Of a stretch of 64,000 nt of DNA, positions 2,470-61,312 are shown in pieces. How positions within the stretch are numbered: the stretch's first letter is position 1; every line of letters starts with the position of its first letter. Source of the stretch: Thermoanaerobaculia bacterium (GTDB taxonomy: Bacteria; Acidobacteriota; Thermoanaerobaculia; Gp7-AA8); the NCBI GenBank assembly GCA_036380735.1, contig DASVEE010000015.1, positions 48,954 through 112,953 on the forward strand, written 5' to 3'. The notes under the pieces were generated by a model. That model did no database searches, had not been told where the DNA came from, and saw only the letters and a list, made by a program, of their open reading frames with translations. Position numbers and translations under genes: made by a program.

Positions 2470-3048
2470 CTACCCGTGCAGCGCCGTCAGCTTCATGTAG
2501 TCGATCCAGACCGGCAGCAGCTTGTCCATGCGGGCGCGGAGGGCCGCGGCGGCGCCGGGGGTCAGGGTGGTGAAGGGGTCCTGGGCCAGGCGTTCCTTCG
2601 CGGCCGGGTCGGTGACGCGGGTGAGGTCCATCTCCAGCGGGCCGTCGATCTTGCCCTGGAAGTCGAGGGTCTCGAAGACGTGGTTCACGGCTTCGCGGGT
2701 GCGGCGGTAGCGGGCCTCGTCGATGGAGGCGGCTTTGGCGGCGGCAGGGATGGTGTGGTCTTCCCACTCCTGCTGGGCGGCGGCGCCGCGCTCGGCCGGC
2801 GTGGCGGCGTTCGCGCCGCGCTCTCGCGCTGCCTTGACCAGCGCGATCTCCTGGGTCAGGCCGCGCTCGTAGAGGTCGAGGTCGGCGGCGGTGAAGTCGG
2901 CCGGGCCGGCCGTGGGCGCAGCGCTCTCTGCGGACGAGGCGGCGGCGGTGGTTTCCTCCGGCGCGGCGCCGTTGGTGGTGTCGGTTTTCGATTCGGCGCC
3001 GCCGCACATGACGGCCAGGAAGGGCAGCAGCAGGATGAGGCGTTTCAT
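2470..3048 (-). CDS. Putative lipoprotein, unknown function
   Basis: Signal peptide plus lipobox (LLLPFLAVMCGG), then a low-complexity Ala/Thr-rich linker. Confidence 0.5.
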   Translation of the reverse strand: MKRLILLLPFLAVMCGGAESKTDTTNGAAPEETTAAASSAESAAPTAGPADFTAADLDLYERGLTQEIALVKAARERGANAATPAERGAAAQQEWEDHTIPAAAKAASIDEARYRRTREAVNHVFETLDFQGKIDGPLEMDLTRVTDPAAKERLAQDPFTTLTPGAAAALRARMDKLLPVWIDYMKLTALHG

Positions 3049-3081
3049 GGCGCCATTATCCGCGAACGCGACGGCGTCCTG

Positions 3082-3486
3082 TCAGGGCAGCGGCGGTTCG
3101 GTGGCCTTCAGCTCGGCCGAGGCGTTGAGCTCGGCGGTGGTCTCCGCGATGAGGACGTTGATGTCGAACGGCTTCTCGATGAAGCGCGCCACCGGGGGAC
3201 ACACCTTCTCCAGGGCGCTGGCGCCGAAGGCTGTCATCACGATCACGTGGGCCAGCTTCTCCGGATGGTGCTCGGTGAGGTACTTCACGACGCCGTAGCC
3301 GTCGATGCGCGGCATCATGAGGTCGAGCACGACGAGGTCGTAGTCGTACGCCAGGATCTTCTCGATGGCCTCGGCACCGTCGCGGGCCGAATCCACCTCG
3401 AAGTCCTGCCGGGCCAGGATGCGCGAGACCAGAATCCGGATCCCCGCATCGTCATCCACTACCAGCACCCGGCGCTTCGCGCTCAT
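3082..3486 (-). CDS. Response regulator, single receiver domain
   Basis: RRVLVVDDDAGIR...DLVVLDLMMP receiver motifs; start taken at the internal Met (MSAKRR). Confidence 0.8.
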   Translation of the reverse strand: MSAKRRVLVVDDDAGIRILVSRILARQDFEVDSARDGAEAIEKILAYDYDLVVLDLMMPRIDGYGVVKYLTEHHPEKLAHVIVMTAFGASALEKVCPPVARFIEKPFDINVLIAETTAELNASAELKATEPPLP

Positions 3487-3637
3487 GGCCACACCCCCCC
3501 GGAGACACCCCTGCCAGTACACCGCGCATTACTACGAGAGGACATTCCAGGGATCGACTTAGCAACGGCACTGCCAAGGTGCACAGGGAAAGCGGCAGAT
3601 GGGGGGTATGAATAAAAAATGACACCAAAGAGAACGA

Positions 3638-3758
3638 GAGGACGAATAGGACAGATAGGACGAATAGGACCTATAGGACCGCCGCCCAAACCCCGCGCGG
3701 AACTGCCCATGGGACCCCGGTGTCCTATTGGTCCTATGGGTCCTATTCGTCCTATCGT
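3638..3758. repeat. Tandem-repeat-armed hairpin element (GAATAGGAC 9-mer arms)
   Basis: gaggacgaataggacagataggacgaataggacctataggac ... gtcctattggtcctatgggtcctattcgtcctatcgttcc. Confidence 0.8.
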
Positions 3759-17021: not shown

Positions 17022-17651
17022 TCAGAGCTCCGGCCGCGCATTGTAAAGCGGATTGCCGGACGGATCGCCGGGGCGATTGCTGAGCGGATCGATGCCTGCG
17101 CGGCGCAGCATCTGGAAAAGCGTCGCCAGCGGGAGCCCCACCACGTTCGTGTAGCTGCCGTGGATGGACTCGATGAACATGGCGCCGATGCCCTGCACGG
17201 CGTAGGCGCCGGCCTTATCCATCGGCTCGCCGGTGCTCACGTACCAGGCGATTTCGTCGTCGGAGAGCGGCAGCATGCGCACTTCCGACTCGGCCACGCG
17301 CGTCTCGTGGTGCTTCCGCTCGAGGTTCACCAGCGTCACGCCCGTGTAAACAATGTGGGTCTGGCCGGCGATGGTCTTCAGCATGCGCCGCGCGTCGGCT
17401 TCGTCGACAGGCTTTTCGAGGAGCTGCTCGCCGAGGAGGACGGTGGTGTCGGCGGCGATGACCCAGCGCGAGGGATGCTCCTGCGCCAGCGCCGCCGCTT
17501 TGTCGCGCGAGAGCCGCGCGACGTACTCCTCCGGTGCTTCTCCGTCCGCGCGCACTTCGGGGACGTGCGACGGCAGGACGTCGAAGTCGAGACCGATGGA
17601 CGCGAGCAGCTCGCGCCGCCGCGGCGAAGCGGAAGCCAGGATGAATTTCAC
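17022..17651 (-). CDS. maf: Maf-like nucleoside triphosphate pyrophosphatase
   Basis: KFILASASPRRRELL...; GTG start inferred; its start overlaps the stop of the upstream toxin gene. Confidence 0.8.
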   Translation of the reverse strand: MKFILASASPRRRELLASIGLDFDVLPSHVPEVRADGEAPEEYVARLSRDKAAALAQEHPSRWVIAADTTVLLGEQLLEKPVDEADARRMLKTIAGQTHIVYTGVTLVNLERKHHETRVAESEVRMLPLSDDEIAWYVSTGEPMDKAGAYAVQGIGAMFIESIHGSYTNVVGLPLATLFQMLRRAGIDPLSNRPGDPSGNPLYNARPEL

Positions 17652-17908
17652 CGGAGCGGTCTCTCCTCGATGCGCACGATGGCCAGGATCAGCACATACC
17701 GCGCCTCCGCCACGATCCGGTAGAGGATGCGCAGCCCGCCGATGCGATGGCTCCACAGGCCGCGCAACGGCTCGAAGAGGGGCGTGCCGACGATGGGGTC
17801 CTCGTCGATGATCTCCAGCGTCTTCATGACCAGGGCGCGCTCGTCGGAGTTGAGCGCTGCCCAGTCGTCGGCCACGGATTGGGCCAGGCGGAGGCGGTTA
17901 TGCCACAC
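17648..17908 (-). CDS. RelE/ParE-family type II toxin
   Basis: ...LEIIDEDPIVGTPLFEPLRGLWSHRIGGLRILYRIVAEARYVLILAIVRIEER; start trimmed to the GTG downstream of the repeat hairpin; the longer ORF-track N-terminus is repeat-encoded (TDNGPRTTDN). Confidence 0.65.
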   Translation of the reverse strand: MWHNRLRLAQSVADDWAALNSDERALVMKTLEIIDEDPIVGTPLFEPLRGLWSHRIGGLRILYRIVAEARYVLILAIVRIEERPLR

Positions 17909-17920
17909 ACGCCACCTCGG

Positions 17921-18013
17921 CCGGTTGTCCGTTGTCCGTGGTCCGTTGTCCGTGCTGGCGCTGCACGGACGCATAGCGCAGCACGGAAAACGGAAAACGG
18001 ACAACGGACAACG
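17921..18013. repeat. Tandem-repeat-armed hairpin element (GTCCGTT heptamer arms) between antitoxin and toxin genes
   Basis: ccggttgtccgttgtccgtggtccgttgtccgtgctg-gcgctgcacggacgcatagcgcag-cacggaaaacggaaaacggacaacggacaacg. Confidence 0.85.
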
Positions 18014-18019
18014 CGTCCC

Positions 18020-18277
18020 TCACCCCAGATCCTCCACTTCCAGCACCGCCCCCGCGCGCACCTCTTCTTCCGCGCGGTTCAATCTGGCCGTGACGTTCGC
18101 GTCGTTGGCCAGCTCGATCGTTTCGCGGAGGGCAAAGTATTCGTCGTAGGAGACGAGCATCACGACCGGGCGGCCGTGGCGCTCGAAGATGGTGCGTTTG
18201 CCCGTGAGCTCGCACTCGAGCACGAGCTCGCGAGCGTCGGGCGGAAGGTCGAGGATCTCGGTGCGGCGCTCGCGCAT
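18020..18277 (-). CDS. Phd/YefM-family antitoxin
   Basis: ...FERHGRPVVMLVSYDEYFALRETIELANDANVTARL..., matching the Phd/YefM signature; lies upstream of the RelE-like gene. Confidence 0.65.
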   Translation of the reverse strand: MRERRTEILDLPPDARELVLECELTGKRTIFERHGRPVVMLVSYDEYFALRETIELANDANVTARLNRAEEEVRAGAVLEVEDLG

Positions 18278-18283
18278 GGCGGC

Positions 18284-19223: not shown

Positions 19224-19330
19224 AAAGGACGGAAGGGACCGATGGACCGATCGGACAGACCGCGCAAGTCCGGGTGGGCGGGGTCCCATCCGTCCTATCG
19301 GTCATATACGTCCCATTCGTTCCATCGTCC
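19224..19330. repeat. Tandem-repeat-armed hairpin element (GGACCGAT / GTCCTAT-type arms)
   Basis: aaaggacggaagggaccgatggaccgatcggacag ... gggtcccatccgtcctatcggtcatatacgtcccattcgttccatcgtcc. Confidence 0.7.
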
Positions 19331-20036: not shown

Positions 20037-20798
20037 TCATTTCGCGCTGAGCGCCTTCGCCTCGCGCAGCATCTCGTCGGCGCGGGCCCGGACGCGGTAA
20101 TCCTCCGTCAGGTTGCGCCAGCGCACGACGCCGTTGCGATCGATCAGGAACTCCGCCGGCCGTGCGGTCGGTCCGCCGCCCATGCCGGATTTCTCGTGGA
20201 GCAGGTCGTAGCGGCGAATGACGTTACCTTTAGGATCGCCGAGAAATGTGTACGAAAATGCAGATCCGTAATGCTTCTTGGTGACCTCGGCGGGATCGAT
20301 GCTGATCGCGATCGGCTTCACGCCGGCCGCTTCGAATTCGGGAAGACGCTGCTGGATACTCCGTAACTCGGAGTTGCAGAACGGTCACCAGTAGCCGCGG
20401 TAGAAGATGAGCAGGACGCCGTTCGAGCCGGCGAGCGTCTGCGACAGCGTGACCGGCTTGCCGTTCGTGTCGGCCAGCGTGAAGTCGGGCGCCTTCTGTC
20501 CCGGAGCCGGCGAGCCCGCCGCGCCCGGCATCCCGCCGCGCGTGGAGGCGATCGCGAAGACGAAGGCGCCGGCGATGACCACCCCCAGCACGGCCACGAT
20601 CGAGGCCAGCACTTTTTTCGGCGCCCGTCGCCAGCCGGTGACGAGGAGCACCAGCGCGAGGACGAAAAGGGCGTAGTTCACCCAGGGCACATCGCGCGTG
20701 ACGGGATAGTTGACGAACACCGTGAAGTAGGTGAGGAACGCGGCCACACAAAGCAGTAGCCCCGTCCAGAGCGGCCAGTTGAAGCGTTTCTGCTGCAT
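20037..20798 (-). CDS. Redoxin (AhpC/TSA / thioredoxin-fold) with in-frame TGA at the first Cys of the CxxC motif; candidate selenoprotein (UxxC), or a pseudogene
   Basis: One continuous reading frame across two ORF-track fragments; ...GVLLIFYRGYW-TGA-PFCNSELRSIQQRLPEFEAAGVKPIAISID...; the TGA at 20385-20387 falls exactly where Cys is expected; N-terminal TM anchor. Confidence 0.55.
20345..20384 (-). promoter_or_regulatory. Candidate bacterial SECIS-like stem-loop immediately 3' of the in-frame UGA
   Basis: mRNA CUGC-A-ACUCCG-AGUUA-CGGAGU-AUCCA-GCAG beginning about 8 nt after the UGA: 6-bp upper stem, 5-nt loop, 4-bp lower stem. Confidence 0.3.
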
Positions 20799-20872: not shown

Positions 20873-20914
20873 GGGGTCCTATAGGTCCTATCCGTCCATA
20901 CGTCCTATCGTCTC
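20873..20914. repeat. Single-arm GTCCTAT-type tandem array
   Basis: ggggtcctataggtcctatccgtccatacgtcctatcgtctcc; no clear complementary arm. Confidence 0.6.
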
Positions 20915-23102: not shown

Positions 23103-23576
23103 TCACCTCGGATCAAAGTATCTGACCGCCATGAACCCCACGCCCTTCTGGCCGTTCTCCGACTTCGGGTCATCGGACAGCACGACGATGACGTTGGGCA
23201 GACGGTCGTCGTAGATCAGGACCGACTTCGTCCCTTTCTTCGGTTGACCGAGGGTCTTGGTCAGGAACTGCTTTTCCTCGGCGAAGGCCTTGCGGACCTC
23301 GGGGAGAAACGAGAACAGCTCGAAGCGGACGGACTTCAGCCGCTCCTTCTGGAACTCCAGGGTGAGGGCGCGCTCGTCGGTGTAGTCGACGAGCATTTCG
23401 TCCGCCTTTTTCCCCTGCTTCACCTGCCAGCCGCCGTCGGAGAGGGTGCGGACGGCGTCGGCGCGGCTCATGCCAATCGTGAGACGGAACGATTCGGGGC
23501 GCATCCAGCCGGTCTGACTGGCGGAGGGGAAGGCCGTGGCGGCCGAGAGCAGGAGAGTGAGGATCGTCGTGAGCAT
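23103..23576 (-). CDS. Hypothetical secreted protein
   Basis: Signal peptide only; no recognisable motifs. Confidence 0.4.
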   Translation of the reverse strand: MLTTILTLLLSAATAFPSASQTGWMRPESFRLTIGMSRADAVRTLSDGGWQVKQGKKADEMLVDYTDERALTLEFQKERLKSVRFELFSFLPEVRKAFAEEKQFLTKTLGQPKKGTKSVLIYDDRLPNVIVVLSDDPKSENGQKGVGFMAVRYFDPR

Positions 23577-24257
23577 TCAGTGTATGTACGGAGAGTCCGG
23601 ACGGGCCGTCGAGCGGCGGGACTGCACGATGGAGGTGGCGAGGAGGACGCGGCGGCCGATCTCGTCCCACTGCTGCGTCTTGACGAGGTCCGGCATCGCC
23701 AGCGAGCCGCCGAGGTTCACGGCGACGCAGCCGGCGTCGAGATAGGAGTCGATGTATTCGAGCGTCACGAGTCCGCCGGCGAGCATCGGGATGTCGCGCA
23801 GCGGTCCGCGGATCGTGCGGATGTAATCGGGTCCGCCGAGCTGCGGCGCGGGGTAGACCTTGACGATGTCGCAGCCCGCTTCCCAGGCGCGCACGATCTC
23901 GGTCGGCGTGGCCGCTCCGGCGACGGAGAGCATGTCGTTCTCGATCGAATAGTCGATGAGGCGGACGTCGGTGTGCGGCGAGACGATGACTTCCGCCCCG
24001 GCGCGACGGGCCAGCGCCGCGTCGTTCGTGCTGCGAACCGTTCCGGCCGCGACGACGATGCCCTGATCCTTGTAGCGCTGCACCATCTTCCCGATCAGCT
24101 CGACGGCGTCGGGCGTGGTGAGGGTGATCTCGAGGACCCGGATTCCGTTACGGGCATAAGCATCAGCGACGGACTCGGCAATGCGAGCGTCATCTTCGCG
24201 AACGACGCCGACGATCTGTTCCGAGCAGACGCGGCGCAAGAGCTCCTTGCGTGACAT
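23577..24257 (-). CDS. eda: KDPG / KHG aldolase (Eda family)
   Basis: ...GIRVLEITLTTPDA...VAAGTV...GAEVIVSPH...VKVYPA... typical of Eda TIM-barrel aldolases. Confidence 0.75.
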   Translation of the reverse strand: MSRKELLRRVCSEQIVGVVREDDARIAESVADAYARNGIRVLEITLTTPDAVELIGKMVQRYKDQGIVVAAGTVRSTNDAALARRAGAEVIVSPHTDVRLIDYSIENDMLSVAGAATPTEIVRAWEAGCDIVKVYPAPQLGGPDYIRTIRGPLRDIPMLAGGLVTLEYIDSYLDAGCVAVNLGGSLAMPDLVKTQQWDEIGRRVLLATSIVQSRRSTARPDSPYIH

Positions 24258-24280
24258 GCGGGTAGGGTAGCACGCGCGAT

Positions 24281-24362
24281 TTATGGGACTAATAGGGCAC
24301 ACACTTCTGCCTCTGTCCTATACGTCCCATTCGTCCTATCGGTCCTATACGTCCTATCGTTC
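24281..24362. repeat. GTCCTAT-type tandem array with weak complementary left arm
   Basis: tatgggactaatagggcac ... tgtcctatacgtcccattcgtcctatcggtcctatacgtcctatcgttcc. Confidence 0.65.
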
Positions 24363-32170: not shown

Positions 32171-32296
32171 GAACGATAGGACCTATAGGACGAATAGCAC
32201 CTATAGGACGGATAGGACCCCGCCACCCGAGATCCGCCTTTGACGTTGTCCTCTAGGTCCCATCCGTCCCATCCGTCCTATAGGTCCTATCGTCCC
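32171..32296. repeat. Tandem-repeat-armed hairpin element (ATAGGAC 9-mer arms) between bshA and the slt gene
   Basis: aacgataggacctataggacgaatagcacctataggacggataggac ... gtcctctaggtcccatccgtcccatccgtcctataggtcctatcgtcccc. Confidence 0.8.
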
Positions 32297-36955: not shown

Positions 36956-37027
36956 GAGGACGAATAGGACCTATGGGACGCCCTATTTGTCCCATCTGTC
37001 CTATAGGTCCTATTCGTCCTATCGAGC
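36956..37027. repeat. Tandem-repeat-armed hairpin element (ATAGGAC 9-mer arms, very short loop)
   Basis: gaggacgaataggacctatgggacg-ccctatttgtcccatctgtcctataggtcctattcgtcctatcgagcc. Confidence 0.75.
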
Positions 37028-39297: not shown

Positions 39298-40485
39298 ATG
39301 GAACTCGACATCTTCTTTTCGATCTGCCAGACGGAAGTGAACGGCTATCTGCCGAGCGAGCGCGTCATGTTCGAGAACTTCTTCGAACAGGTCGACCTCG
39401 CCGACCGCCTCGGCTTCGGCACCGCGTGGGTGGCGGAGAGCCATCTCTCCACGGAAGTGCAGAAGACGAACCCCGGCGCGGTGATCCCTCACTTCGTCGG
39501 CGAGATCGGGCTCAACACCGACATTCTCCAACTCGCGCACAAGGTGTTCGCGCGGACGAAGCGGATCGGCATCGGCTCCGCGATCCTCAACATCCTCTGC
39601 AACGGCGGCCCGATCGCGCACGCGGAGCGGATCAAGACGTTCCTCTCGCTCCATGGGCTCGACCCGCACGAAACGCGCACGCTGACGATCGGCTTCGCGT
39701 CCGGCCGCTTTCCCTTCATCAACATCCCGTACGGCATCGTGCCGCGGAATGCGGTGGAGGAGGCGGCGTGGCCGGTGGTGAAGAACAAGATCTTCGAGGA
39801 GGCGACGGAGATTTTTCTCCGCCTGCTCAAAGGGGAGACGCTCAACTCCTCGATGATTGCCACGCGCACGATGAAGCGGGCCGACTTCCGCAAAGACGAG
39901 GACTGGCAGCGTGTGCAGGAAGCCTACGGGCAGCCGGCGGAGGAGATTCCGCTCGCCGCGCGCTGGCCGTTCCCCAACCTCAAGATCGTGCCCGAGGAGC
40001 CGCGGATGGAACTGCTGCGCCTCTCGATCGGCTCGCACGACCCGGCTACGCAGATCTTCGCCAACACGATCCTCCCGGTCGGCGTCTTCAACCTCTCGAT
40101 CACCCCTGGGGACGAGATCGAGAAGACGAACGAGCGGATGCAGACGCACTACCACCCCGACGGCGGCGGCTGGCAGCGCCGGCTGATGCCGCGGACGGTC
40201 CTGGTCTTCATCAACGACGACGATCCGGCGAAGGCGCACCAGGAGGCGCGCGACGCGCTGTCCAACTACTGGCGCGCGCTCGAAGGGACTCTGGACGAGG
40301 AGAAAGTGCGCCGCGCCACGAACAACGCGCTGGTCGGCAACGCCGAACAGATCGCCGCCCAGATGCAGGAGCGCTTCCATTCGGACGACCGCCTGATGCT
40401 GTGGTTCGACTTCAATAATCACGACTCGAAGAGAGTCATGAAAAACATGCACGATTTCATGACGAAGATACCGCATAACAAATAG
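39298..40485 (+). CDS. LLM-class (luciferase-like) flavin-dependent oxidoreductase
   Basis: Bacterial-luciferase TIM-barrel family features; start at MELDIFFSI. Confidence 0.6.
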   Translation: MELDIFFSICQTEVNGYLPSERVMFENFFEQVDLADRLGFGTAWVAESHLSTEVQKTNPGAVIPHFVGEIGLNTDILQLAHKVFARTKRIGIGSAILNILCNGGPIAHAERIKTFLSLHGLDPHETRTLTIGFASGRFPFINIPYGIVPRNAVEEAAWPVVKNKIFEEATEIFLRLLKGETLNSSMIATRTMKRADFRKDEDWQRVQEAYGQPAEEIPLAARWPFPNLKIVPEEPRMELLRLSIGSHDPATQIFANTILPVGVFNLSITPGDEIEKTNERMQTHYHPDGGGWQRRLMPRTVLVFINDDDPAKAHQEARDALSNYWRALEGTLDEEKVRRATNNALVGNAEQIAAQMQERFHSDDRLMLWFDFNNHDSKRVMKNMHDFMTKIPHNK

Positions 40486-40594
40486 GACGAATAGGACGAA
40501 TAGGACCAACAGGACCGATGGGACCGACAGCACCTACCGACAGCCGGGCGCAGCGTCCCGTTCGTCCTATTCGTCCTATAGGTCGTCCTATCGT
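40481..40594. repeat. Tandem-repeat-armed hairpin element (ATAGGAC 9-mer arms), core contains GGGCGCAGC
   Basis: aataggacgaataggacgaataggaccaacaggaccgatgggaccgacag ... gtcccgttcgtcctattcgtcctataggtcgtcctatcgttgcc. Confidence 0.75.
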
Positions 40595-51520: not shown

Positions 51521-51646
51521 GCGCGCGCATTATGCCGGAGGCGTGCGGGGATGGAACCGATGGCCGAATGGGACACCACGATGTTGACCACGACACATCC
51601 TCCGTCCCATCGGCCTTTCCCGGCCGTCTGATATATTCGCGCGCCT

Positions 51647-51886
51647 ATGGCCGTCGATCAGGAACTGCTTGCCATCCTTGCCTGTCCCCTGTGCAAACAG
51701 GAAGTGAAAGTCGTCCCGCTCACGGAGGCGCGGCGCTCCGCGGTGCGCGACAAGTACCGGGAGAAGTTCCGCGGCGAGGAGCCGGTCGTCGAGAGCGGCC
51801 TCCGTTGCGTGAAGTGCGGCCGCGTCTACCCCGTCGTCAGCGACATCCCGATCATGCTCGTCGAAGAAGCCTACGATGAGCCCTGA
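51647..51886 (+). CDS. Trm112-family protein (DUF343)
   Basis: LLAILACPLCKQ...LRCVKCGRVYPVVSDIPIML zinc-ribbon-like Trm112 signature. Confidence 0.7.
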   Translation: MAVDQELLAILACPLCKQEVKVVPLTEARRSAVRDKYREKFRGEEPVVESGLRCVKCGRVYPVVSDIPIMLVEEAYDEP

Positions 51887-51889
51887 GTC

Positions 51890-53128
51890 GTGCTAGCCCG
51901 TCTGCTGGCTGGAGTCCGCTCGGAGTTCTCCAGCCTCAGTCCTCACGGTCTCCTCCGCTGGGCCGGCTTCTTCTACTTCGCCCACATCCTTTTCCAGGGA
52001 AAGATCGCCCCCTCGGAGCTCGGCGCGTTCTGGTTCATCTTCTGTCTCGGCTGGGCCATGGTCCGCCGCGAGGCGCGCTTCTCGTTCCACATCCTCTATT
52101 ACCCCCTGATCCTCTACGGCGTCGTCTCGACGCTCTCCGCCGCCGTGGCGCAGGCGCGCATCCACGCCGGGTTCGAGTCGATGCTGTGGTTCAAGATGCT
52201 GATCTTCCCGGCGGCGCTGATCTACTTCCGGATGATCCCGCGCGCGCGGACGCTCGCGCTCTGGGCGCACGTCGTGTTCGGCGTCGGCATCGCTGCGTGG
52301 GGCATCTTCGAGTTTCTCGTCCTCGACCAGCGCGATCTGGAGCGGCGGATCAACGGTCCGTCGACGCACGTCATGACGTTCTCCGGGCTGCTGCTGCCGC
52401 TGTCGCTGATGCTGCTGATGATGTGGTGGCACCAGCGGAAGGCGTGGCAACTCGCCGCCACCACGGTCATCTCCCTCACGCTCGTCCTGACGTTCACGCG
52501 CGGCGTCTGGCTCGGCTGGATCTTCGCGGTCGTCGTGATTCTCGTCGTCGCGCGGCCGCGGCTCCTCCTCTATCTGCCCATCGTGCTGGTGTGGGGACTC
52601 GTCCTCATGCCGTTGCCGGTCTTCGGACGGCTGATGTCGATCTTCGATCCGACGCAGTCGTCGAACCTGGACCGCATCCGGATGATCGAGGCGGGGGTGG
52701 AGATGATCCGCGACTATCCGGTCCTGGGTGTTGGGCCGGCGAACGTGAAAGAGGTGTATCCGCTCTACAAGAAGCCGGACGCTCCCCGCTTCCGGCCGCC
52801 GCACCTCCATAACAACGTGATCCAGCTCTGGGCGGAGCGCGGGGTCCTTGGGGTGGTCGCCTACATTCTGTTGCTCGCCCTCTTCCTCCGCGAATGCGCC
52901 AAGGGGTGGCGCTCGCCGGGGGAGGGGAGGATGTGGGCCGAGATCGGGATCGTCATCACGGCCGGCCTGACCTGGGCCGGGCTGTTCGAGTTCAACTTCG
53001 GCGATACCGAGGTCTTCTACATCATGCTCGACCTCTTCGCCCTCGTGATCGCTTCCATCGAGGCGAGCGCGGCCGAGCCGGTGAATGAACCGGCAGTAGG
53101 GGCTGTTCCGGCGATGTCAGCAGCTTAG
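51890..53128 (+). CDS. O-antigen ligase-family membrane protein (Wzy_C)
   Basis: Polytopic, with a large periplasmic loop containing TFTRGVWLGW; non-ATG start probable. Confidence 0.6.
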   Translation: MLARLLAGVRSEFSSLSPHGLLRWAGFFYFAHILFQGKIAPSELGAFWFIFCLGWAMVRREARFSFHILYYPLILYGVVSTLSAAVAQARIHAGFESMLWFKMLIFPAALIYFRMIPRARTLALWAHVVFGVGIAAWGIFEFLVLDQRDLERRINGPSTHVMTFSGLLLPLSLMLLMMWWHQRKAWQLAATTVISLTLVLTFTRGVWLGWIFAVVVILVVARPRLLLYLPIVLVWGLVLMPLPVFGRLMSIFDPTQSSNLDRIRMIEAGVEMIRDYPVLGVGPANVKEVYPLYKKPDAPRFRPPHLHNNVIQLWAERGVLGVVAYILLLALFLRECAKGWRSPGEGRMWAEIGIVITAGLTWAGLFEFNFGDTEVFYIMLDLFALVIASIEASAAEPVNEPAVGAVPAMSAA

Positions 53129-56432: not shown

Positions 56433-56515
56433 TCGGACGAATCGGACCTACAAGACCAAAGCGCCGGTCCCATTCGTCCTATAGGTCCTATTCGTCCTAT
56501 TTGTCCTATCGGACC
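56431..56515. repeat. Tandem-repeat-armed hairpin element (GGACGAAT / GTCCTAT-type arms)
   Basis: gatcggacgaatcggacctacaagacc-aaagcgccg-gtcccattcgtcctataggtcctattcgtcctatttgtcctatcggaccc. Confidence 0.75.
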
Positions 56516-61274: not shown

Positions 61275-61312
61275 CTGTCCTATACGTCCCATACGTCCTA
61301 TAGGTCCTATTA
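61275..61312. repeat. Single-arm GTCCTAT-type tandem array
   Basis: tgtcctatacgtcccatacgtcctataggtcctatt. Confidence 0.6.

Follow-up and report, generated by a model that had tools for sequence, protein, structure and literature searches.

Whether an in-frame TGA within a redoxin gene encodes selenocysteine (Sec) or marks the point at which the gene has been broken is the question raised by a locus on the minus strand of a 64,000-nucleotide stretch of DNA from a Thermoanaerobaculia bacterium of the phylum Acidobacteriota (assembly GCA_036380735.1, contig DASVEE010000015.1, positions 48,954 to 112,953). The whole of this 64-kb stretch is referred to here as the window, and positions are counted from its first letter. 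A preliminary description had proposed that the locus encodes a Sec-containing, membrane-anchored redoxin. That reading was supported by conservation of the TGA, by the pairing of Cys and Sec at one alignment column and by a downstream hairpin under selection at synonymous sites. The locus is very probably a genuine gene for a membrane-anchored selenoprotein of peroxiredoxin (Prx) fold, 253 residues in length, in which UGA codon 138 specifies Sec.

Reading frame and internal TGA codon

Read on the minus strand from 20798 to 20037, the locus forms one frame of 254 codons. The complete coding sequence (20037-20798) comprises 253 residues and a terminal TGA at 20037-20039, and begins with an ATG at 20796-20798 (MQQKRFNWPLW...), a predicted start that agrees with the N-termini of homologues, where orthologues begin M..RRFNWPLW. 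The sole internal stop is a TGA at 20385-20387, in the context LLIFYRGYW*PFCNSELRSIQ. Translation confirmed the single frame with one internal TGA that had been described previously, with the strand unstated. This TGA, codon 138, is the putative Sec codon and the first residue of a UxxC motif; the second, Cys141, is encoded by TGC at 20376-20378. The GC content of third codon positions (GC3) was of coding type on both sides of the TGA (0.91 and 0.78, in a window of 65.5% GC). An alternative genetic code, in which TGA would encode Trp or Gly, was ruled out because TGA is an ordinary stop in the window, where it ends many long coding open reading frames (ORFs) as well as the redoxin gene itself.

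Conservation of the TGA codon among relatives

A protein search returned 705 homologues, the top 120 of which were inspected. Approximately 40 of these were full length and approximately 80 were gene calls of 139-178 residues ending exactly at ...FYRG[YHFD]W, the pattern expected of a mis-called selenoprotein family. A scan at the DNA level, using one genome per species, recovered 377 relatives, and the best 80 loci, with identities of 47-61%, were analysed. These were mostly from Thermoanaerobaculia, Pyrinomonadaceae/Blastocatellia, Terriglobia, Ca. Acidoferrales and Chloracidobacterium metagenome-assembled genomes (MAGs). All 80, from different species-level genomes, had TGA at this codon and beyond it a conserved frame that ran uninterrupted to a normal stop; with the window itself, the TGA was present in 81 of 81 genome-derived sequences. 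Scanning of an independent metagenome collection yielded at least 527 relatives, among which the 67 RG-type loci likewise had TGA at that codon and an intact downstream frame (67/67). TGA forms numbered 148 altogether, and in every one of them a downstream frame of approximately 115 codons was conserved at about 50% protein identity. Cys141 was present in 81/81 orthologues and was at least 90% conserved among full-length homologues.

These counts bear directly on the possibility that the locus is a pseudogene, in which a nonsense mutation in a Cys-type redoxin leaves only a truncated fragment of 137 residues to be made. Gene callers treat the locus in just this way, as the short entries among the top 120 homologues attest, and no Sec machinery was seen in the window. 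A nonsense mutation would not, however, be expected across the classes of a phylum, and the frame beyond it would decay; the 148 orthologues instead retain the TGA at exactly this codon together with a conserved frame running to a proper stop, and GC3 downstream of the TGA is coding-like. As the codon is common to 148 lineages whose proteins now share about 50% identity, and the 115 codons downstream of it are conserved, it is, on these comparative grounds, not a nonsense mutation. The recent mutation that had been envisaged as the outcome that would overturn the Sec assignment was not what the orthologues showed, and a pseudogene is scarcely credible.

TGA-form orthologues were also found in two MAGs labelled as belonging outside the Acidobacteriota, namely L046 (DATMMW010000012.1, Candidatus Dormiibacterota) and L078 (DASXIC010000111.1, Chthoniobacterales). 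L046 and L052, the latter from Ca. Acidoferrum, hardly differed around the active site, the extended 7-bp hairpin included. The placement of L046 and L078 could reflect either mis-binning or horizontal transfer.

Cysteine and tryptophan at the selenocysteine position

Alignment with homologues established the correspondence between U and C that had been put forward as a check on the assignment. Cys occupies the TGA column in P0001 (WCPFC, 59% identity), P0004 and P0005 (CPAC), P0012 (CPLC) and P0007, with the codon TGC in P0001 and TGC or TGT in P0004, P0007 and P0012. A more distant subfamily, FYMYSGCRAC (11 genes), also has Cys in this column. Among close relatives, Cys forms are a small minority. 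The P0007 gene lies in a cluster (L084:6120-11167; GCA_046128585.1, contig JBJSWE010064495.1) with genes for an extracytoplasmic function (ECF)-type sigma factor (Sigma70_r2/r4_2 + DUF6596), YCII, SnoaL-like, two DoxX, glyoxalase and DUF1428 proteins. This neighbourhood is of stress or redox type, and none like it was seen around the Sec forms.

Six full-length database entries (P0002, P0003, P0006, P0008, P0009 and P0010) have Trp at the Sec position. The DNA of one of the six, P0002 (L082:181-1065, JGI Ga0613177_36808), was checked. Both its internal TGA and its true terminal TGA had been read as Trp, giving a protein that ends ...SDRWQVTSDE. The Trp in P0002 is an artefact, such as arises from genetic code 4, and the contigs carrying W-forms were probably called with the wrong code.

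Recoding of the UGA as an amino acid other than Sec was considered in the light of these forms, either as Cys, by means of a tRNA-Sec-like tRNA(Cys) and SelB, or as Trp or Cys through near-cognate read-through stimulated by the hairpin. A few bacteria have been described in which UGA is recoded non-canonically as Cys with the help of SelB, no Sec machinery was found in the stretches of carrier genomes that were searched, and W stands at the Sec site in some JGI entries. Those entries, however, are explained as code-4 mistranslations, and Trp at the catalytic position of a CxxC motif would be inactive. Were Cys intended, TGC or TGT would be the cheaper solution, and forms of that kind exist but are few among close relatives. 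TGA is, moreover, a normal stop in the window, and the Acidobacteria are documented users of Sec (PMC1794560, PMC12013277). Recoding to a residue other than Sec is accordingly regarded as very unlikely.

The downstream hairpin

Selection on the mRNA was assessed from a codon alignment of the 81 genome-derived sequences, in which the columns with one amino acid conserved at 90% or more (approximately 85 columns) were scored for codon entropy. The Ser-Glu-Leu-Arg codons that lie 12 nt after the TGA were frozen: Ser was TCC in 81/81 sequences, Glu was GAG in 81/81, Arg was CGG in 81/81 and Leu was only ever TTA or TTG. Every other conserved column with synonymous alternatives varied, with codon entropies of 0.6-2.4 bits. 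The remaining Ser, Leu and Arg columns ranged from 0.7 to 2.4 bits, with CTN dominating Leu elsewhere. The same freeze was found in the 67 metagenome TGA forms. Among the 11 genes of the FYMYSGCRAC Cys subfamily, five had TCG for Ser (Fisher p = 6e-7) and two had CGA for Arg.

The frozen bases make up a hairpin, 5'-(A)CUCCG-AGUUR-CGGRG(U)-3', which in the window reads ACUCCG-AGUUA-CGGAGU (20358-20374, minus strand). This candidate core of a bacterial selenocysteine insertion sequence (SECIS) has a 5-bp stem (CUCCG/CGGAG) that closes a loop of five nucleotides (AGUUA), and the UGA is separated from the loop by 16 nt. The minimal SECIS of Escherichia coli fdhF likewise sits 11 nt after its UGA. 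Columns 15-23, 25-27 and 29 of the hairpin alignment were invariant. The 5-bp core was paired in every one of the 79 distinct sequences, one of its pairs being U-A in some and U-G in others. About half of the sequences had a sixth pair, and three of these showed a double change from A-U to U-A. The stem-loop originally drawn extended further. Its inner part, ACUCCG-AGUUA-CGGAGU, stands, whereas the outer CUGC/GCAG helix proved to be specific to the window and was discarded, since only 49% of its cells were paired among the orthologues, which did not exceed the level in shuffled controls. For the window sequence alone, a 71-nt fold was no more stable than shuffles (z = -0.15), so the argument for structure is a comparative one.

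The published model of the bacterial SECIS (bSECIS), as set out in a 2026 review, specifies a loop of 3-9 nt with a G among its first two nucleotides and, as a rule, G or U as the next base, an upper stem of 4-16 bp, a distance of 16-37 nt between UGA and loop and a minimum free energy (MFE) of -7.5 kcal/mol or lower (PMC13188914 Fig. 2). The hairpin conforms in its loop (AGUUR, 5 nt, with G then U at positions 2-3), its stem (5-6 bp) and its spacing (16 nt). The MFE was at or below -7.5 kcal/mol in 76 of 81 segments of 45 nt, including that of the locus studied here, for which 51 nt gave -14.8 kcal/mol. Selection at synonymous sites and the fit of most sequences to the published constraints thus bear out the earlier suggestion of a hairpin at the position of a bacterial SECIS.

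Four relatives with a Cys codon, L083:354-1109 (P0001), L084:10001-10804 (P0007), L086 and L087, still possess most of the hairpin, and P0001 possesses it perfectly. In two of these four the loop-forming Leu codon is CTT or CTG, which occurs in none of the 148 TGA forms. The close Cys forms look like recent Sec-to-Cys conversions carrying a decaying 'fossil' SECIS.

It might be argued that the invariant 15-nt element is a signal of some other kind, such as a protein-binding site, the target of a small RNA or an antisense feature, with the TGA handled by other means. The lack of an Rfam match and of compensatory covariation would be compatible with this, as would the retention of much of the 15-nt stretch in the close Cys forms. 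Its position, loop sequence, stem length and spacing are nevertheless all in keeping with the bSECIS model, the freezing of codons goes with the TGA forms and is relaxed in the Cys subfamily, and no conserved antisense ORF or neighbouring gene accounts for it. A function unconnected with Sec insertion is therefore judged most improbable, and the hairpin is treated below as a putative SECIS.

Selenocysteine machinery and evidence to the contrary

Acidobacteria are recorded as using Sec, with four selenoproteins from three families (PMC1794560 Table 2). Occallatibacter riparius is listed as a Sec user (PMC12013277 Table 2), with three selenoproteins, AhpD-like, deiodinase-like and FdhA (PMC12013277), none of which belongs to the family of the redoxin described here. 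No tRNA gene was detected in the window, and no tRNA-Sec in the 80 orthologous loci, using ARAGORN. Searches of the window by tblastn with E. coli SelA, SelB and SelD sequences gave no match, in agreement with the statement in the preliminary description that selA, selB and selD are not present there.

Several observations weigh against the interpretation of the locus as a selenoprotein gene. Neither selA, selB, selD nor tRNA-Sec was found by tblastn and ARAGORN in the window or in approximately 0.9 Mb of sequence flanking the orthologues, a null result which means only that these genes are not linked to the redoxin gene. The stem of the hairpin is invariant, with almost no compensatory covariation beyond the changes at two pairs noted above. 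The bare 17-nt hairpin is short, with an MFE of -5.8 to -7.5 kcal/mol across sequences (-7.3 for the copy in the window), and the 16-nt spacing from UGA to loop lies at the lower limit of the bSECIS model. No Rfam SECIS or other credible RNA family was matched, either in the whole window at the gathering threshold or in a permissive scan of 20300-20420, which returned only chance matches to a long non-coding RNA and to U3; as bacterial SECIS elements are poorly modelled, this result is uninformative. The persistence of most of the hairpin in four close Cys forms could be due to very recent conversion from Sec to Cys or to an extra constraint on these codons. The closest match in the scan of species-representative genomes was 61% identical, and an exact search with the N-terminal fragment recovered only a 1.2-kb Logan contig from SRR25158503. 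Finally, the gene has no conserved operon partner that would supply a functional context, the best neighbour cluster being present in 17 of 81 loci.

Domain architecture and active site

The structure was examined using an AlphaFold2 model of P0001, the Cys homologue of 59% identity, which stands in for the protein encoded in the window. The model, of high confidence (pLDDT 92, pTM 0.82), has long helices at residues 7-24, 37-56 and 61-87 and a short one at the TRDVP loop; an alpha/beta domain follows. From this model an N-terminal membrane domain of three predicted transmembrane helices was assigned to residues 1-86, approximately (20541-20798, minus strand). The Prx-fold (AhpC/TSA-Redoxin) domain was assigned from Pfam, PDB and Foldseek comparisons to residues 99-253 (20040-20504, minus strand), and contains U138-P-F-C141 and the invariant R213, within ARPAEFLID.

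With U replaced by C, the protein matched the Pfam families AhpC-TSA (PF00578; 1.2e-29, residues 99-227) and Redoxin (1e-20). A sequence search of the PDB identified A. pernix BCP (1.5e-17), M. tuberculosis AhpE (approximately 5e-16) and ResA (4e-11). Foldseek comparison of the P0001 model identified Bcp4, AhpE, BcpB and PrxQ, the matched entries including 3hjp, 1xvw, 5epf and 4gqf, with target-normalised TM scores of 0.88-0.91 and root mean square deviations of 1.8-2.5 Å. The membrane part gave no structural match in the PDB by the same means, and no match in Pfam. Its conserved columns are P32, T34, R35, D36, P38, W39, G55 and R58, with no conserved Cys. The loop between helices 1 and 2 carries a conserved P-x-T-R-D-[VF]-P-W, and F-N-W precedes the motif. 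Conservation of this domain, as judged from these columns, exceeds what a simple membrane anchor would require. Positive charges are found before the first transmembrane helix (K4/R5) and between the second and third (R57-R58-x-x-K61-K62, RRAPKK). As the positive-inside rule places both groups in the cytoplasm, the redox domain should lie outside the cytoplasmic membrane, facing the periplasm.

In the PDB alignments, FYRGYW-U-PF-C was set against FFPAAF-S-PV-C. Cys141 falls at the position of the peroxidatic Cys of PrxQ/BCP/AhpE (2cx3, 4xih), Sec138 at the Thr/Ser of the Prx signature and Arg134 at its Pro. R213 is invariant, and HMMER aligned the Prx Arg of 2cx3 with the next residue, P214. 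The site is thus predicted to be a thioredoxin-style UxxC on a peroxiredoxin scaffold. The preliminary description had taken the TGA for the first residue of a WCPxC-like redoxin active site; this was correct in that Sec138 is the first residue of UxxC, but the fold is of Prx type and the Sec sits at the Thr of TxxC.

Relationship to known redox proteins

A 'Prx-like thiol:disulfide oxidoreductase' (PF00578, UxxC/UxxU, represented by WP_010940744.1) is listed among the prokaryotic selenoproteins 'predicted with high confidence' (PMC13188914 Table 1). WP_010940744.1, from Geobacter sulfurreducens, contains FYRGAWUPYC (PMC12013277 supplement), as compared with FYRGYWUPFC here, and the two proteins have in common the AhpC/TSA domain and the motif FYRGxWUPxC. 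They aligned by BLASTP with 30% identity over 168 amino acids (E = 4e-17), with U aligned to U. Both the known family and the protein described here are predicted from a UGA/Cys pair and a downstream hairpin. Known representatives of the Prx-like family have a soluble helical N-terminal extension of approximately 60 residues and an insertion of approximately 20 residues before the FIID strand, whereas the present protein has the three-helix membrane domain with its PxTRDxPW loop and is without the insertion. The Prx-like members occur mostly in Deltaproteobacteria and Clostridia (PMC1794560 Table 3), in contrast to the clade described here, which is mainly acidobacterial. The gene is therefore classed as a member of the known thioredoxin-fold UxxC Prx-like selenoproteins with a distinct, membrane-anchored architecture, and not a new kind of selenoprotein.

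PrxQ/BCP and AhpE (2cx3, 3hjp, 1xvw) have the same fold, and of the proteins with solved structures they were closest in sequence (1.5e-17 to 7e-15). They share with the present protein the Cys at position 141, peroxidatic in those enzymes; the invariant Arg of the present protein (R213) lies in the ...R...F-[LI]-[IV]-D strand region. Their signature, PxxxT/SxxC, is absent here, with R134 in place of Pro and U138 in place of Thr/Ser, and the present protein differs also in being membrane anchored. The best scores with NCBIfam Prx models were 37-52 bits, against cutoffs of 140-374.

The general plan is that of TlpA, ResA and CcmG: a membrane anchor at the N-terminus and, after it, a domain of the thioredoxin superfamily with a dithiol-type xCxxC site. 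ResA was the top NCBIfam match (3.8e-14), and the scores of all three models concerned were below cutoff (ResA 53 against 170 bits, DsbE 26 against 123, TlpA 19 against 230). The differences are that three conserved transmembrane helices replace a single anchor, that the fold is of Prx type and that Sec replaces Cys. Proteins of the TlpA/ResA/CcmG type offer the best analogy for the redoxin's probable mode of action.

PrxU, Sec-Prx (TxxU) and SelL-related proteins are selenoproteins of the same AhpC/TSA-Redoxin superfamily. In Sec-Prx the peroxidatic Cys is replaced by Sec, giving TxxU (PMC13188914 Table 1), whereas here the Sec lies three residues upstream and the Cys at the peroxidatic position is kept. 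Matches to PrxU (37 bits, cutoff 270) and SelL_rel_redox (44 bits, cutoff 120) were weak. No NCBIfam model covers the family, as all matches, including those to ResA, Prx, PrxU and SelL-related models, were far below cutoff.

Proposed mechanism

During translation, UGA codon 138 would be read as Sec, with the hairpin CUCCG-AGUUA-CGGAG immediately downstream acting as the SECIS that recruits SelB charged with Sec-tRNA(Sec); this role is suggested by conservation of the hairpin and by its fit to the bSECIS model. The product would comprise three N-terminal transmembrane helices followed by a Prx-fold domain that presumably faces the periplasm. Sec138 would stand where a thioredoxin-type CxxC has its N-terminal, nucleophilic Cys and a Prx TxxC its Thr. 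The most likely chemistry is that the selenolate of Sec138 attacks a substrate disulfide, sulfenate or (lipid) hydroperoxide, after which Cys141 would resolve the adduct to leave an intramolecular selenenylsulfide, to be re-reduced by an electron-transfer partner in the membrane. In sum, the protein would be a thiol:disulfide oxidoreductase or peroxidase of the Prx-like kind, dependent on Sec and anchored in the membrane.

A different balance of products can be imagined, in which the main product is the truncated, 137-residue three-helix protein, the full-length form is minor or dependent on selenium, and the UGA is above all a regulatory switch. Strong conservation is indeed seen in the N-terminal membrane domain (PxTRDxPW, G55, R58). 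Some truncated product would also be expected from partial decoding, the efficiency of Sec decoding in E. coli being given as 30-40% (PMC4513850). Against a switch of this kind, conservation of the Prx domain equals or exceeds that of the membrane domain, the Cys forms make only the full-length protein, and the frozen synonymous sites of the hairpin argue for selection on efficient insertion. Predominance of the truncated form is consequently considered unlikely, and full-length synthesis through Sec insertion at codon 138 is the preferred interpretation.

Distribution, annotation and significance

The gene is present in hundreds of Acidobacteriota genomes and metagenome contigs, as judged from the 377 relatives in species-representative genomes and the 527 or more in metagenomes, and Acidobacteriota are among the most abundant bacteria in soil. 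None of the top 120 homologue entries is annotated with selenocysteine (no U). Most are described as a 'hypothetical protein' of 139-178 residues or bear an arbitrary name, a truncation that results from taking the Sec codon for a stop; in some JGI records that codon is read as Trp. Recognition of the gene would correct a systematic annotation error, and would extend the thioredoxin-fold UxxC selenoproteins by a member that is anchored in the membrane and probably extracytoplasmic. The 148 orthologues with an invariant hairpin, together with Cys forms in which the hairpin is relaxing, also provide an exceptionally clean natural dataset from which to define the requirements of a minimal SECIS in the Acidobacteriota. 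Understanding of Sec decoding is unchanged by this gene, and another UxxC redox selenoprotein would not surprise a specialist; the wide spread of the clade among soil Acidobacteriota, its systematic mis-annotation and the invariant minimal SECIS are nevertheless worth recording.

A broader proposal is offered tentatively, as a possibility less probable than its converse. The clade may represent an undescribed selenoprotein subfamily spread across the Acidobacteriota (Thermoanaerobaculia, Blastocatellia/Pyrinomonadaceae and Terriglobia), in which the PxTRDxPW three-helix domain is joined to an extracytoplasmic Sec-Cys Prx domain that might, for example, reduce membrane lipid hydroperoxides or periplasmic disulfides. 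Were this so, the near-invariant 15-nt SECIS (CUCCGAGUURCGGRG) could serve as a marker of selenium use in soil metagenomes, and expression of the redox domain would depend on selenium, a truncated membrane protein being made when selenium is scarce.

Other features of the window

Four further TGA-split pairs of ORFs in the same frame (2470-3528, 51632-53128, 23103-24317 and 17648-18283) were considered as selenoprotein candidates in the window and set aside, as they look like ordinary adjacent genes. The pair at 17648-18283 (minus strand) consists of two small abutting ORFs, of 85 and approximately 118 amino acids, that adjoin a galU-like gene. From a reading of their sequences we take the two to resemble an antitoxin and toxin (Phd/YefM-like, then RelE/ParE-like).

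An intergenic repeat family built of 9-nt periodic units, TAGGACNNA (for example TAGGACCTATAGGACC), gave 42 matches at three or fewer mismatches in the window, against 0.04 expected. The sites are 782-864, 3647-3754, 19282-19315, 20875-20910, 24314-24356, 32177-32289, 36956-37021, 40483-40587, 56442-56508 and 61276-61309, and one cluster sits immediately upstream of the start of the redoxin gene. Peptide strings such as …DNGQRTT…, seen in several frames between approximately 15.3 and 18.2 kb, suggest more copies of a short DNA repeat. The TAGGACNNA clusters are inverted, in that an array on the plus strand often has one on the minus strand about 50 nt further on; candidate explanations are a REP/MITE-like element or a protein-binding array.

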